The notes beneath the pieces were generated by a model. That model was not told where the DNA came from, searched no databases, and saw nothing but the letters and a program-made list of their open reading frames with translations. From Stegostoma tigrinum (lineage: Eukaryota), in assembly GCF_030684315.1 (NCBI RefSeq), contig NC_081387.1, forward strand, positions 24,856,647 to 24,920,646: a DNA stretch of 64,000 bases, given 5' to 3'. Below, one piece after another: positions 4,632-62,880 of the stretch. Position 1 is the stretch's first letter. Each line of letters starts with the position of its first letter. Position numbers and translations under genes: made by a program.

Positions 4632-4816
4632 ATAACAAAGTGTGAATGAAGCTGGATGAACACAGCAGGCCAAGCAGCATCTCAGGAGCACAAAAGCTGA
4701 CGTTTCGGGCCTAGACCCTTCATCAGAGAGGCTGCTGCTTGGCCTGCTGTGTTCATCCAGCTCCACGCTTTATTATCTTGGATTCTCCAACATCTGCAGT
4801 TTCCAATATCACTAAC
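4632..4816. mobile_element. PLE pLTR fragments in inverted arrangement; hammerhead core on the minus strand
   Basis: GCTGACGTTTCGGGCCTAGACCCTTCATCAG at ~4696-4726. TSD CTACTAACACT at 4621-4631 and 4817-4827. Confidence 0.8.
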
Positions 4817-15394: not shown

Positions 15395-15628
15395 AGAGAT
15401 AATGGGAACTGCAGATGCTGGAGATTCCAAGATAATAAAGTGTGAAGCTGGATGAACACAGCAGGCCCAGCAGCATCTCAGGAGCACAAAAGCTGATGTT
15501 TCGGGCCTAGACCCTTCATCAGAGAGAGTCTCTGATGAAGGGTCTAGGCCCGAAACGTCAGCTTTTGTGCTCCTGAGATGCTGCCTGGCCTGCTGTGTTC
15601 ATCCAGCTTCACACTTTGTTATCTTGGA
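15395..15628. mobile_element. Inverted pair of PLE pLTR tails (palindrome, 100-bp arms) with two hammerhead motifs
   Basis: Arms 15426-15525 and 15529-15628 with spacer GAG. TSD GATTGTTGCTG at 15384-15394 and 15627-15637. Confidence 0.85.
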
Positions 15629-21412: not shown

Positions 21413-21893
21413 AGATAATGGGAACTGCAGATGCTGGAGATTCCAAGATAATAAAATGTGAGGCTGGATGAACACAGCAGGCCAAGCAGCATCTCAGGAG
21501 CACAAAAGCTGACGTTTCGGGCCTAGACCCTTCATCAGAGAGGGGGATGGGGGGAGGGAACTGGAATAAATAGGGAGAGAGGGGGAGGCGGACCGAAGAT
21601 GGAGAGTAAAGAAGATAGGTGGAGAGGGTGTAGGTGGGGAGGTAGGGAGGGGATAGGTCAGTCCAGGGAAGACGGACAGGTCAAGGAGGCGGGATGAGGT
21701 TAGTAGGTAGCTGGGGGTGCGGCTTGGGGTGGGAGGAAGGGATGGGTGAGAGGAAGAACCGGTTAGGGAGGCAGAGACAGGTTGGACTGGTTTTGGGATG
21801 CAGTGGGTGGGGGGGAAGAGCTGGGCTGGTTGTGTGGTGCAGTGGGGGGAGGGGATGAACTGGGCTGGTTTAGGGATGCAGTGGGGGAAGGGG
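21413..21893 (-). mobile_element. PLE 3' fragment (same family as 59189-59814) with intact hammerhead core
   Basis: Reverse complement of the intron-1 element. Hammerhead at ~21507-21540 on the minus strand. TSD AGTTAAATTATGAG at 21399-21412 and 21894-21907. Confidence 0.87.
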
Positions 21894-22430
21894 AGTTAAA
21901 TTATGAGGCTTAATGTGCTTACTTCGCTGGTCTTATTTTGGCTGCCACGTGCAATAAAGTTTGAATCATTAAGTCAGTACTTGATTGCCTTTGAGATTTC
22001 TTAATGAGTAGCTGATTTAAGGTAACTTGTGTTGATTTACCCACAACAACATTAACTGAATTACAGTGTTACTTAGTAACTTTCAGAAATATTTGTGCAA
22101 TAACTAGCCTTTGATCTTGTTCAAAATATAAAGCTTTGCTATTGGCACTTCTTAAATGAGCTAACTCACATACAAATCTGAAAGGGGTCAAAATGAACTT
22201 AACTCATTCACAACTCCCGAGTCATTGTGGTAGAATGATTAGCCAACGTCTTTTCCCTAGGGTGGGGAGTCCAAACCAAAAAGGCATAGGTTTACAGAGA
22301 GAAGAGAAAGATTTAAAGAGGACCTGAGAGGTAACTTTTTCATGCAGTGGATGGTACATGTACAGAATAAACTGCCAGAAAAGTGGTGGAGACACGTACA
22401 ATTACAGCTTTTAAAAGGCAGCTGGCTTCA

Positions 22431-56343: not shown

Positions 56344-58506
56344 CAAGAAACTGAGCTGTTCACTTCGACATGAAAACCATTATGTAAAGGCGTTGTCTTG
56401 AAGGATGCCAGGCAAGCCTGCAGATGATTGACAATTGTTTGGAAGTAAACACTTTCTTTACTTTATATTGCTGTCCTTTTCCAAGAGAACTTTTAAAACT
56501 CCTTAAATTCATCATTTGATGCTTTCATCAACAAAGGATGATGCAGATGTGAGCGCAGCAGAACATGAGAATCATGAACACCACCTTCGTGCTCCATGGA
56601 ATATAATGTCCATGTCAATGGAGTTGGGCAATGAGAATCCAATTGTCAGGTGAGTCTCTTTGCTTGACTTATTTCAAAGGCACCTAGCCTGCTCCATGAT
56701 GCATCAGTCTTGGCCGAGCATAGGACACACCAATAACAAGCTTCCCCCACTCTTTGAACAAATGCTTTCATCAATTTTAATGTGAATTTGACGCAAAAGA
56801 AACGGCCTCCCAGACCTGATCTGTCATCAGGAATGATGTGTGAATTTGATAATATCGCCCACTGTGACTCTGTCAGGCGCTCTTTGAAAGTGTGTCAGGC
56901 TAACTCAGCCAAACACTTGTCCATTACGGAAATGGCTTGGTTTGTGATTTATTTTCCCATTTCTAGAAAGCATCTTGTAGCATATTGCTTTTGAGGAAGG
57001 GATGTTCAGTGAATGGAAATACGCACTCATTAAGCTCAATCTGACCAGCTGGAATGCAGGGCTTTCCATTTCTCAGGAAAGTATGGTCTGGGGTCAATCT
57101 TGAAAAATTCCTTTCAGTCCCAATCGTTGATGCACTTTTTCCCCAATCCAAAATAGACATCACCTCTCACTCCTCTGAAATCCAGTGAAAATAAGTTCAC
57201 CCTGAAAAATCAATCCTTATCAGACAACCCTCCCATTCCAAGTATCGATCTCACAAGTCTCCTTCAGCACATTCACATTTTTCCCTTGGCAGTAGGATCG
57301 AAAATACAGACAGTGTGTCAAGAGAGCACAGTGTCCTTACTTAGATATATAGTGTACCCAATTGATTTTATAATAAAACACATGATTCCAGTCCCATTTC
57401 TGGTGATGTGATTTAGCTGCATAATAGCTTTACGGGATCCTTGCTCGAGAACATCAAGATACACTGGACTTCTGGAGTCATTCCATGTGGTTTCTTTCTG
57501 CCAATCAGAGAAAGGTGAACTAATGCATCTGCTGTGTTTGCTGCCGGCAAGCCAATCTTCTGTACATGTTAATGTTATCCCTACATCATGTGTTTCCATC
57601 CTGCACCATCACCATGATGTGACAACTTGGCAAATGCCACCTGTCTAATCCAGGTACAGTGCATCAGTAACCTGTCCTTTATCCTTCATTACTCCTTCGA
57701 ACATTTCTAATAAACCAACAAAATATGATTTCTCCTGACAAAAATCAAGTTGGTTCTTTTTCACGAGCATTAATTGCAGGTACACAGAGAGAAGGCATTG
57801 TAACAGTGTCCCTCTGAAAGATGTCATGTCAACTCTCCTATGGTTTCCCTTCTTGTACAGAGACAGTACATGAGTTAATTTCAGTATGGTGGAACATTTC
57901 GTGCATCTTTTGAACTTTTAAAAATTCACACCAACAAATGGGCTGCCGCATTAGTCTTGCAGTATGACCCTGTCTTGCTCTGTCTATGTGTTCAGTAATA
58001 CTTCCCGACTGAATATAATTTCATCATATTCCTGCACCCATTCCACCTCTGGATTTAATAAATACCTGCTGATGCCTGCTTTCATTTCCTTATTCTCTGT
58101 GATTAACTGCCCCATCTCACTATCCAGGGGACCAGCACGCAATGTCCTTCCTCCGCTATGTTTGAAGTGGCCTGTAGAAACTGTTGTTTTTTCATGTTGA
58201 GTTAATTTTCTCATTCTGTCTCGTTTTGTCCTCTTGATTAATCTGTTCGTCATTCACTTCTGCTCCTTCGTATTTTTGCCCCAACATCTGATAAGTCACA
58301 CATCCGTGTGCAATTGTATGCTTTTTATAAGCTTGATATTTGTGTACGTTATTTCGTTCACCACTGGGGATGCATCTTCCCCTGACTGAAGGAGAAACCA
58401 TGATTTCCCTGAGAAAGTTCGCGCTGTGCCCACCTGACATCTACACGTCTCCCTCTATCGTTGTTGTCAGTGAAAGTGAGCACAAAGGAGAGACCGGGTG
58501 ATATAT

Positions 58507-58712
58507 TGAAGCCCACTTTTGGTTCAGTGCAGCTTTCCCCGGATTTGGGGGAAACTGCTCTGGTTCCGCGTTGGGTGAAAGTTACACAGAGCGAGTCTCA
58601 ACTTCGATGAGGAGAATGGTCACTTTCCAAACGCTAAAGTTTCTGCCTGGGTATTTCCCACTCCATTGCATCACAGTTACCAGTGATGTGGTTCTGCTCG
58701 TTATAAGGAGCT
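58507..58712 (+). promoter_or_regulatory. Proximal promoter of TNF copy 4
   Basis: TATAA 58702-58706 and the same motifs. Confidence 0.7.
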
Positions 58713-58829
58713 GTTGGTGAGCAGCAGCAGTTACAGAGCAGGCACCTCCAACCGAGTGAGAGAGACAGAGAGGCTGACCGGCTCAGAGTCACCCACTCAC
58801 ACACCGAGCTCCCGCTGCCTTCTGACACC

Positions 58830-61810
58830 ATGAATCCTGAGAACAAATTGCAGGAACTGGAGAATGGGGGGCTGCTTCCCGTCAGGGACGGAGCCTCGAA
58901 CAGAAGCTGCTTCTGGCAGGCCCTCTGTGCGCTCGCTGTGCTCGGCTTGTTGCTGGTTTCGTCCTGTCTCTTCCTGGCTCATTTTGGAGTTCTCCCTTCA
59001 AAGCAGGTGAGTGAGGATCTTGCATTTTGGAGAATAGGGGATCGGGCTCCCGCCTGCCGCTTGCATAGCTCCGCCAGAGGCGGGTGTTTGGAAGCGGTGG
59101 GGCCAAACTGGGAAGTGATTTCAGTCTCAGTTGCTGCTGTCAGCCTGGAGGCAAACAGGAAACTGTGAACCAGGTCGCTACTTTAGCTTTACCAGTCGCA
59201 AACCATTTCCACTCCCCCTCCCATTCTCTTGATGACATGTCCATCATGGGCCTCCTGCACTGCCACAATGATGCCACCCGAAGGTTGCAGGAACAGCAAC
59301 TCATATTCCGCCTGGGAACCCTGCAGCCATATGGTATCAATGTGGACTTCACCAGTTTCAAAATCTCCCCTTCCCCCACTGCATCCCTAAACCAGCCCAG
59401 TTCATCCCCTCCCCCCACTGCACCACACAACCAGCCCAGCTCTTCCCCCCCACCCACTGCATCCCAAACCCAGTCCAACCTGTCTCTGCCTCCCTCACCG
59501 GTTCTCCCTCTCACCCATCCCTTCCTCCCACCCCAAGCCGCACCCCCAGCTACCTACTAACCTCATCCCACCTCCTTGACCTGTCCGTCTTCCCTGGACT
59601 GACCTATCCCCTCCCTACCTCCCCACCTACACCCTCTCCACCTATCTTCTTTACTCTCCATCTTCGGTCCGCCTCCCCCTCTCTCCCTATTTATTCCAGC
59701 TCCGTCCCCCCATCCCCCTCTCTGATGAAGGGTCTAGGCCCGAAACGTCAGCTTTTGTGCTCCTGAGATGCTGCTTGGCCTGCTGTGTTCATCCAGCCTC
59801 ACATTTTATTATCTTCGCTACTTTAGCTGCAGTCTCTCAACAGCGAAGCGAATACCGAGCGATTTTGTCGTCAATCCTGCTAAATCTCCATTGTTAGCTC
59901 AGGGAACTGTTAGAATTGCTCCCTGTTCGATGGTAAACGCCACATAAACGGGATTTCTCAGTCAGTGCTGCCGGTGCTACCATAGGAGAAGCAGGTACTG
60001 GCTGCTGTGAGTCGAGGGCAGTCACCGGTCTGAATGGCCCCATGGTGTGGCTCTGCACAGTCTGGATGGACAATAGTCTGTCTGCACTTTGCAGTCCAAA
60101 GTAGTGACTGTGAAAGGCAGCGTCTCTATGCAAAGTAATTTCTCTGTACAGTACAGTTTCTCAGTAAACACACTGTCTCCCTCCGATACAGTGTCTCCCC
60201 AAAATGTCTTGATCTTGTACAGTGCAGCGAGCTTGTTTACAGATCAGACAGACCATGTACCTGTGGGCCGGGATGTCGAACCACTTCTGTTAGGTGCAGT
60301 GAAAATTCAGTGTATCTCAATATCTTAACATCTGTCCTTGTTGAACTTCTTCAGGATTCAAGACCAAAGCTGGAAGATCCCCATCCAGCCCTGACAACAG
60401 CTGCTCAGGCCAATGGTGTGTACTGTCACTGTCCATATATTATATTGCTTTGCTGATGTGTGTCTCTGTGTCAAACCTTTTCAATATTTCTGTCTTTTCA
60501 TCTCTCATTTCCAGTATTACTGTATGTCACCTCTCTCAATCATGCTCTTTTGCTGTTTATGTGTCGATTTCCCTGAGCCATCGTCAGACTCTTGAGGACC
60601 CTCTCCCAGTTTGGAGTGATATTATACTTGAAATCTTCCCTCTCTTTCTCCCTCCACTGGTGTGTTTTCTCCTGCAGTCGTCTCTCTCATTATCCCATCT
60701 GTGCAGTTGTCTCCTCTTCAGCCCCTCTCTCTCACCCTGTGTCTGTCATTCTGTGCTCTGTGGGTGTCACAACAGTGACTGAGTTTCCATCCTTTCCATT
60801 TCCAGGTTTGCCTCGTCTCATGAAGCAGGTGGGGAGTGTCCCAGGGCCGAGAATCGCTGCTCACCTGACAGGTACGGAAGTGTTCTCAATGTGACTGCAT
60901 TCTCTGGAGAATAGTCTACAGTGGCTGGGGAGGTGTAGGGGAGGACTGGAAAGACATCTACTTTCTCTATCAGTAATGCCATGTGGAGAGAGCACCACAG
61001 GAGAAGAGCAAGAGGTTATTGGGATCTGGGAAAAGAGAAAGGAGATTGGTGTGAGCTGGTTCAGCTGAACCCTGAGATAGAACAGACACAAAGGTTAAAA
61101 TCTTTCTGTGGTTGGCCTCTCTGTGTGTGTCAGAGTGAAAATTGCCCTCAGGGTAATAATTAAGTTGCAGTCCATCCAGTTTCTCTGAGATTGTAAGCTG
61201 TGGGACCTTGCTGTGCACAGATTGTTTGCTGCATTTCCTGCAATTGCATAGTCTTTCCATCAAAAACACATCATTGGTTGTATCGTGCTTTGTCATATCC
61301 CCAAGCCATGATTAGGGCTGTGTTAATACAAGCTGTATCTTTGTCTTTGTTCGATCCTCATGATTGCTTCTTTCTCTCCCTTCACCCTCCACCACAGCTT
61401 CAGCAAGAAATGAAAAAGGGGAAGTAATTTGGCAGAATGAGAGTGACTCCACCTTCACCGAGGGAGTGGAGTTCAGGGACAACCATCTGATCATCAAGAG
61501 GCCGGGACAGTACTTTGTCTACACTCAGGTGGTCTTCCACAGCATGGGCTGTGAGCAACAGGCCATTTACCTCAGCCATGAGCTCGCCAAGCAGTCGGCA
61601 AGTTATCCTGAGGAAGCCGTCCTACTGAAAGCCACCAAATCTGCCTGCCACTCTCACCAACGTAGGGAGCCCTGGTACAAAACCTCCTACCAGGGAGCCA
61701 TCTTTGAGTTTCTGGAGGGAGATGAGATCTTCTCCAGGGTTAATGAGGATGCAACGGGATTTGTAGACGCAGCCGAAGGAAAGACTTTCTTTGGAATATT
61801 TGCTGTGTAA
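58830..61810 (+). CDS. tnf: TNF-alpha-like cytokine, copy 4; exons 58830-59006, 60355-60415, 60806-60871, 61398-61810; 238 aa
   Basis: Splice sites and frame intact. Carries N24, P30Q and R131H relative to copy 2. Intron 1 is 640 bp longer because of a PLE insertion. Confidence 0.88.
59189..59814 (+). mobile_element. 5'-truncated Penelope-like element in intron 1 of TNF copy 4
   Basis: Encodes a GIY-YIG C-terminus (PVANHFHSPSH...EQQLIFRLGTLQPYGIN). C-rich ~39-nt repeats, then a pLTR tail with hammerhead core. TSD TCGCTACTTTAGCT at 59175-59188 and 59815-59828. The site is empty in copies 1-3. Confidence 0.9.
59718..59752 (+). ncRNA. Minimal type I hammerhead ribozyme motif (PLE-associated)
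   Basis: CTGATGA 59722-28, extra A, helix II GGGTCTAGGCCC, GAAA 59742-45, palindromic ACGT helix III, GTC cleavage triplet ending 59749. Helix I is only ~2 bp by eye. Confidence 0.65.
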
Positions 61811-62880
61811 CAATGCCATGTCATTTCCATTGATTATCAATGACTGGTCAAGAATTTCAAATTGAAATCTGCAAACTGACAAAGACACAATGTCTTTTTT
61901 AAACAGTGTTATACAGAAATTGCGCTTTGAGTCTGCTGATTCTCAATTTTGCGAATGCAAAATGTGACAGATTATTTAATTTATTTGATATTTGAATAGT
62001 GTTGTCTTTTGTTTGTTTTATTTATATTAGTACTCCTCATGGAGAGTTATTGAACCATCCCTGGTGGAAGAGAACTAGGATACCGAGTCTGATATTCAGA
62101 CTGATTATTCCTCTTGGACCAGGTACTGGTCCTTGAAGAATATTGACTGTTCCTCACGCACAATTTCTATTCTATTCAACCTTTGATATCATTTTGAAAA
62201 CAAAGCACGATGATTGAGTTAACTGCAGGGTGATGAAGGCCAAATCAAGTGCCCAGAAATGCACTGGCTTTCTAACTCCACGATATGATTGGCCAAGTCT
62301 TCATCGCACTTAACCTGTTTAGCAAGTGTATGGTCAGCAATGTAATTGAAATGGTGAAATAATATTCAGCAAACACTAAGAATGTGGCTCAATAATTGTT
62401 CCTTATTCACAATCTGAAGTGACCAGTTGGTTTACATCTGCTTGGTTGCAGTGGATGTCGGAGTGGCATATTTGCTGCTCTGACCAAAGGGTAATGGTTG
62501 AGATTGTTCCTGAATGGAAATACCATGTTCCCTTAGTGTGTTGATGTCTCCAGTGGCCATCCTTCAGACTGGGTAATAAACAGTGATCCTGGTGATAAAC
62601 CTGATTGGCTCTGCAGACGGAAAGATTTTTCATCCACAATGTTGGACCACAGAAATTTAATTGCAGTTCTTTGAACAAACTCAATGTTTCATGTAAAACT
62701 GTAACATCTGTTATATAGGTGACTTTCCGTGGCAATAATATTGTCAAGTTTAAGAGGTTCCAGATTGTTAAGTTATTATTTAATTGTATTTATCGATAGG
62801 TGTATTTATATTATTTATGTTAATATTTAAGTCTGCAAAGATAAAGCAGGATTAATAAAACTAATTTAAGAGCAAGAACT
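61811..62880 (+). promoter_or_regulatory. 3'UTR of copy 4 with AREs and poly(A) signal
   Basis: ATTTA cluster ~62770-62830; AATAAA 62854-62859. Confidence 0.7.

Follow-up and report, generated by a model that had tools for sequence, protein, structure and literature searches.

The 626-bp insert in intron 1 of copy 4, one of five tandem tumor necrosis factor (TNF)-like genes of the zebra shark Stegostoma tigrinum, is in all likelihood a recent, 5′-truncated passenger derived from a very abundant Penelope-like element (PLE), and the hammerhead motif that it carries probably has no activity in the TNF pre-mRNA, whose splicing would be the same as in copies 2 and 3. So read, the insertion is of minor importance, being one among tens of thousands of equivalent insertions. 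A sequence-only reading of the same DNA had proposed instead that self-cleavage, including cleavage in trans between transcripts during expression bursts, attenuates this one TNF copy; the proposal is left unsupported by the sense copies found in 22 of 31 sampled genes, the missing cis partner, an inactive predicted dimer and the weak activity published for such motifs.

Copy 4 lies on the forward strand of the window, i.e., the whole 64-kb stretch of DNA that was analyzed. The coding part of its exon 1 (58830..59006) is followed by a GT donor at 59007 and by intron 1 (59007..60354), which has GT..AG ends and measures 1348 bp with the insert and 708 bp without it; then come predicted exons 2 (60355..60415) and 3 (60806..60871) and the coding part of exon 4 (61398..61810), which contains the TNF domain (Pfam PF00229, E=1.3e-31) and has TNF-alpha as its top solved-structure match. 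Despite the insert, these four predicted exons keep an intact spliced frame of 238 residues. The closest public proteins are zebra shark entries named “tumor necrosis factor-like,” with three near-identical members, and the public protein P0024 has the residues of copy 4. At the join between exons 3 and 4 (60871-61404), the public models give 241 aa, whereas GT..AG models give 238 aa or 236 aa. An NF-kB-like site (58649-58659), a TATA-like box (58701-58706) and an AU-rich 3′ element (61967-61987), all recognized by eye in the copy 4 region, are presumably those of an inducible TNF gene. Copies 2-4 have promoter and exons in common and can be told apart at the transcribed positions 58918, 58922, 61485, and 61815, the first and third of which give copy 4 its private residues relative to the other two (N-terminal P30Q, and R131H within the TNF domain); residue 24 is K in copy 2 and N in the other copies. 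Across 34000-62500, copies 2-4 differ in a patchy manner, each pair agreeing along other segments, a pattern suggestive of unequal crossing over or gene conversion within the array. A fifth TNF-like copy lies just past the right end of the window (L027:7552 to L028:1254); its exons 1, 3, and 4 are 91-98% identical to those of copy 4 and its exon 2 about 80%, and its intron 3 holds an older, decayed sense fragment of the same element that is broken inside the hammerhead core.

The insert spans 59189-59814 and is bounded by a perfect 14-bp target-site duplication (59175..59188 on the left and 59815..59828 on the right, the latter also seen in a short-read contig piece). Its first three bases (59189..59191) are extra, non-element bases at the 5′ junction, the family sequence diverging upstream of 59192, and the final element base is common to the element and the right duplication; none of these junction features is assigned a strand. 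Copies 1, 2, and 3, as well as copy 5 outside the window, have a single target site and no insert, and the alignment of copy 5 to copy 4 is interrupted at the insert, its two parts overlapping by 14 bases. Measured against the majority sequence of 44 close genomic copies, the insert has four near-private changes (~0.6%) and is therefore young. The earlier description of a young 626-bp PLE insertion with a 14-bp duplication, confined to copy 4, is thus borne out, and the conservation of the intron site expected of a ribozyme co-opted by its host is not seen in copies 1, 2, 3, and 5.

The even spacing of copies 2-4 and their identity of 99.1-99.4% would suit an assembly artefact, in which copy 4 or its insertion reflects a second haplotype placed in tandem or a mis-joined repeat. 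However, pairwise comparison of these copies finds 22, 33, and 23 differences in 3861 sites, the two target-site copies match without a mismatch, and in the contigs of one short-read run the merged copies stand at a depth of 31-35 against 8-12 for pieces of diverged paralogues, which are probably copies 1 and 5. The right junction itself is present as a 54-base contig piece (59791-59844) with <31 bases on either side, at a depth of 11.7 vs. 33.5 in the adjoining merged flank (short-read contigs from one sample, the sampled animal being perhaps the same as the assembled one), which fits an insert in one of three near-identical copies. On contig depth and on the sequence differences among copies the artefact was rejected, and its probability is put as negligible. 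Bisulfite runs sampled at about 1 in 100 contributed 0-3 reads on the unique flank; the single bisulfite read at ~59817-59918 has the copy-4 letter at 59850, was not counted across the junction and could come from an empty allele.

The element portion of the insert (59192..59814, + strand) corresponds to the 5′-truncated 3′ end of a Neptune-like Penelope element, namely the end of the endonuclease frame and a pLTR without the optional tail, and is 97.8-99.2% identical to unlinked genomic copies. At one locus (L022), a full-length element is made up of a pLTR, a 1088-residue stop-to-stop frame and a second pLTR; the insert matches the end of this ORF and both pLTRs, its sequence and the hammerhead flanking the ORF at both ends as do the direct pLTRs of EN+ PLEs, which result from a partial tandem arrangement. 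The frame, which terminates in the sequence of the insert, appears to encode a reverse transcriptase, a CX4CxxC linker and a GIY-YIG-type endonuclease; because Pfam support was weak (RVT_1 at E=3.4e-5, under the cut-off, with the GIY-YIG families unmatched), its YIDD and VVY..YIG motifs were identified by eye. The linker motif precedes the GIY-YIG motif at L022 and at a further locus (L021), agrees with the definition of the Neptune linker, CX2-5CxxC (PMC8557442), and points to Neptune or Nematis. The 3′ ends of the family fall into two clusters ~35 bases apart, at window-equivalent positions 59811-59819 and 59845-59858, and the insert ends in the first. Such paired clusters are the signature of the tail and are attributed to two reverse-transcription start sites (PMC11167929). 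Inverted element pairs occur at several loci, and the family combines the optional tail, typically of 30-40 bp, with inverted 5′-truncated partners. The insert may stem from reverse transcription that set out from the first internal start site of the two, halted after ~620 bases and took place at a staggered cut in intron 1, once copy 4 was already separate from copies 2 and 3. Elsewhere in the window, another member of this young subfamily, 451 bp long (21445-21895, minus strand), is 98.7% identical to the insert and has an intact core, and very short element ends form head-to-head inverted pairs at 15429-15625 and 4647-4779, where the mirror copy would cover each hammerhead.

The hammerhead is a minimal type I motif (59720..59751, + strand), which reads CUGAUGA-A-GGGUCUAGGCCC-GAAA-CGUC at 59722-59749 on the strand that codes for TNF; the predicted cut therefore falls at 59749/59750, after C59749. 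Its conserved elements comprise CUGANGA (59722-59728), GAAA (59742-59745) and, as the NUH triplet, GUC (59747-59749), to which are added an extra base (A59729), a helix II formed by 59730-33 with 59738-41 and closed by the pair G59730-C59741, and a palindromic ACGU (59745-48). Helix I, formed by 59720-21 with 59750-51, is limited to 2 bp, with mismatches beyond in register, so that the initial recognition of a sense-strand pLTR minimal hammerhead with a weak helix I of ~2 bp holds for both the coordinates and the pairing. A hammerhead descriptor in which helix I was optional was run on 140 tiles of 10 kb (1.4 Mb in total), taken from between the exon matches of 31 genes for myosins and phosphatases, and found 104 matches, vs. 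0 on the reversed sequence, which argues that they are not due to chance. The first pair of helix I is present in 100 of them, the second in 97 and the third in 24. The matches form three families (85, 11, and 8 members) with compensating changes in helix I (U-A/A-U, C-G/U-A), counted over copies that are not independent events. Helix I is 2 bp long in the family of the insert and 3-4 bp in the two smaller families found in the gene tiles, whose helix II sequences are distinct. The motif is a genuine family member with a short helix I that is inherited rather than damaged, and the intact core together with the covariation of helix I makes it probable that the parent motif is functional somewhere. 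Rfam covariance models applied to 57000-62000 (E<=5) gave five matches, none of them to hammerhead families.

As the motif has no helix III loop, a second copy is needed to form helix III. A cis partner was sought in the copy 4 transcript, where the core of the insert is the sole sense core, the next one on the + strand being 44 kb away. The fragment in intron 3 of copy 5 was also considered as a partner and was ruled out, since it is broken inside the core and belongs to another gene. The predicted co-fold of two copies is an inactive symmetric duplex of -38.0 kcal/mol, vs. -5.5 kcal/mol for the active dimer as drawn, with both core and cut site buried, although nearest-neighbour energies exclude hammerhead tertiary contacts and these values are indicative only. 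For the monomer, helix I has a probability of 0.00 in four contexts, and the predicted probability that the core and cut-site strands pair is 0.98 in 49 bases and 0.05-0.24 in longer contexts (0.05 at 301). In published work, single minimal hammerheads showed no activity and dimers a low one (PMC4209133), although the dimer cleavage treated by Lunse et al. may be higher. The hammerhead of an Anolis PLE reportedly did not cleave without the protein of the element, with no RNA-seq ends at its site (PMC11167929). Among Xenopus retrozymes, one of nine dimers cleaved, very efficiently, and retrozymes are under-represented in Xenopus introns (bioRxiv 10.64898/2026.07.22.740005).

The model of attenuation by cleavage, in which the hammerhead would cut the pre-mRNA of copy 4 as a trans dimer of nascent transcripts or with element RNA as partner, perhaps aided by the protein of the element, draws on the intact core, the G-C pair closing helix II, the palindromic ACGU, the sense orientation and the covariation of helix I among the three genome families. 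In addition, long open frames are present in this young family, so that its protein may occur in some cells. Any cut would have to outpace splicing: a fast HDV ribozyme in an intron is reported to block it, whereas introns cut by a hammerhead were still spliced (Dye 2006 and Fong 2009, as cited in PMC2995048), and a review draws the same picture for the rates of PLE hammerheads (PMC6765202). Against cleavage stand the absent cis partner and the off-pathway predicted dimer, a helix I of 2 bp, shorter than the 3-4 bp of the two other local families, a predicted cut only 605 nt upstream of the 3′ splice site of intron 1, and published activity that is low or protein-dependent (PMC4209133, PMC11167929). 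Cleavage that attenuates copy 4 is accordingly given only a slim chance, and the sense copies in other genes weigh against it further.

The exact 30-base core has 90,316 copies in the genome, one per 35 kb, against 0 for the reversed control, and six core copies with up to 4 mismatches lie in the 64-kb window. Tolerance of such copies in introns was gauged in the 1.4-Mb tile sample, with the orientation of each tile taken from its exon matches and nested genes included. Identical sense cores were found in 12 of the 31 unrelated genes, and sense copies with up to 2 mismatches in 22. The ratio of sense to antisense copies was 18:26 for exact cores (p=0.29), 46:58 with up to 2 mismatches (p=0.28) and 68:77 with up to 4, and 5:8, 16:23, and 25:32, respectively, for copies with no opposite-strand copy inside 4 kb, all without significance; the 95% interval of the sense share is 0.34-0.54. 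Other, overlapping sets gave 30:42, 33:47, 28:34, and 49:55, and a BLAST set gave 69:72, in which the core is mutated in 21 of the sense vs. 14 of the antisense copies (p=0.17). Because these overlapping counts lean toward antisense and sense cores are mutated somewhat more often, albeit non-significantly, a modest cost of sense copies is possible; the tile sample does not separate ribozyme from splice-site causes of the lean. Among 141 copies, the G of the core CpG (59742) is changed in 11% and non-core CpG positions in 13-17%, i.e., at near rates, as neutral decay predicts. At the observed density, a 2.3-kb set of introns has a ~7% chance of holding a sense copy. Sense intronic hammerhead copies are thus commonplace in the sampled genes, and that of copy 4 is not special.

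Ribozyme activity is one of several routes by which the insertion could lower the output of copy 4; the others proposed are a cryptic acceptor that creates a poison exon, and methylation or promoter activity of the pLTR. The element carries a candidate 3′ splice-site-like sequence (59677..59699, + strand), a pyrimidine tract with 18 pyrimidines in the 20 bases upstream of a CAG, and donor-like sites follow at 59932, 59994, and 60006 in the host intron. With 59700 as its first base, an exon would run into a stop at 59895, and all three candidate exons have this stop at codon 125. The element also lies ~360 bp past the start codon; the observed/expected CpG ratio is 0.48-0.59 around exon 1 vs. 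0.22 farther along the gene, and the pLTRs of PLEs are reported to carry promoters and sometimes introns (PMC6765202). In the sampled genes, however, acceptor-bearing copies number 28 in sense vs. 34 in antisense (p=0.53), and without a significant strand bias the cryptic acceptor too is probably tolerated. Both the acceptor at 59699 and the donors were scored by a simple rule only, and among the joints listed in four contig sets, from runs not on record as RNA, none ends at 59700; runs X5 and X8 cover the repeat only and carry no information on TNF expression. A deficit of copy 4 through these non-ribozyme routes is considered improbable, albeit less so than one through cleavage, and the acceptor at 59699 would explain any such deficit no less plausibly than cleavage would.

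The reading favored here remains that of an inert passenger. The hammerhead would serve the tandem transcripts of the element itself, whereas in copy 4 a lone motif with no helix III, in a short-lived intron and with neither partner nor protein, would cleave too seldom and too slowly to alter mRNA output. Far less credible is the wider proposition of trans cleavage of host pre-mRNAs by the Penelope hammerheads scattered through the genome, with element transcripts as partners or the protein of the element as chaperone; copy 4 would then be damped, and the slight antisense excess in introns would mark a ribozyme load across the genome. Were cleavage of consequence, most genes of Stegostoma tigrinum would owe conditional cut sites to a retrotransposon burst. 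Copies 2-4, which are >99% identical but distinguishable, offer a test case for the effect of a sense minimal hammerhead on host output in vivo.

Minimal hammerheads in vertebrate PLEs are already known; the literature search, which left most subscription journals outside its scope, found no report on a Penelope hammerhead family of Stegostoma tigrinum. The array itself resembles the shark TNFSF1/2 genes, tandem TNF/lymphotoxin-alpha-like genes being reported in whale shark and white shark (PMC7674686), from which it differs in having three copies >99% identical, a recent further amplification. Among Neptune-clade EN+ PLEs (Craig et al. 2021, PMC8557442), the parent element is provisionally placed by its linker motif, which Nematis has too, and the copy described here differs in consisting of the last 620 bases only and in lying outside any microsatellite. 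With PAc, the Poseidon element of Anolis carolinensis (PMC11167929), it shares a pLTR hammerhead and two 3′-end clusters ~35 bp apart, although PAc belongs to another clade and its ORF begins within the hammerhead, whereas here the first in-frame ATG lies ~165 bases past the core. Conserved intronic ribozymes, such as the HDV-like ribozyme of CPEB3 and the intronic hammerheads of amniotes (PMC6765202), likewise place a sense-strand motif of self-cleaving type in an intron; in contrast to these conserved, single-locus ribozymes, the shark motif is young, missing from four paralogues, spread genome-wide and devoid of a helix III competent in the monomer. The closest likeness is to the minimal hammerheads of metazoan PLE pLTRs (Cervera and De la Pena 2014, PMC4209133), with which the motif shares the type I layout, the conserved core and the position in the pLTR, as well as the extra base between 9 and 10.1, the G10.1-C11.1 pair, the palindromic 15.2-16.2, the absence of loop 3 and an occurrence mostly as single dispersed copies of truncated elements. 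Its helices II and I, of 4 bp and 2 bp, are shorter than the 7-8 bp and 4-5 bp of the Schistosoma families, D. virilis also having a helix I of 2 bp, and its ~90,000 exact cores compare with ~4,000 motifs in coelacanth and ~9,000 in Xenopus (PMC4209133).
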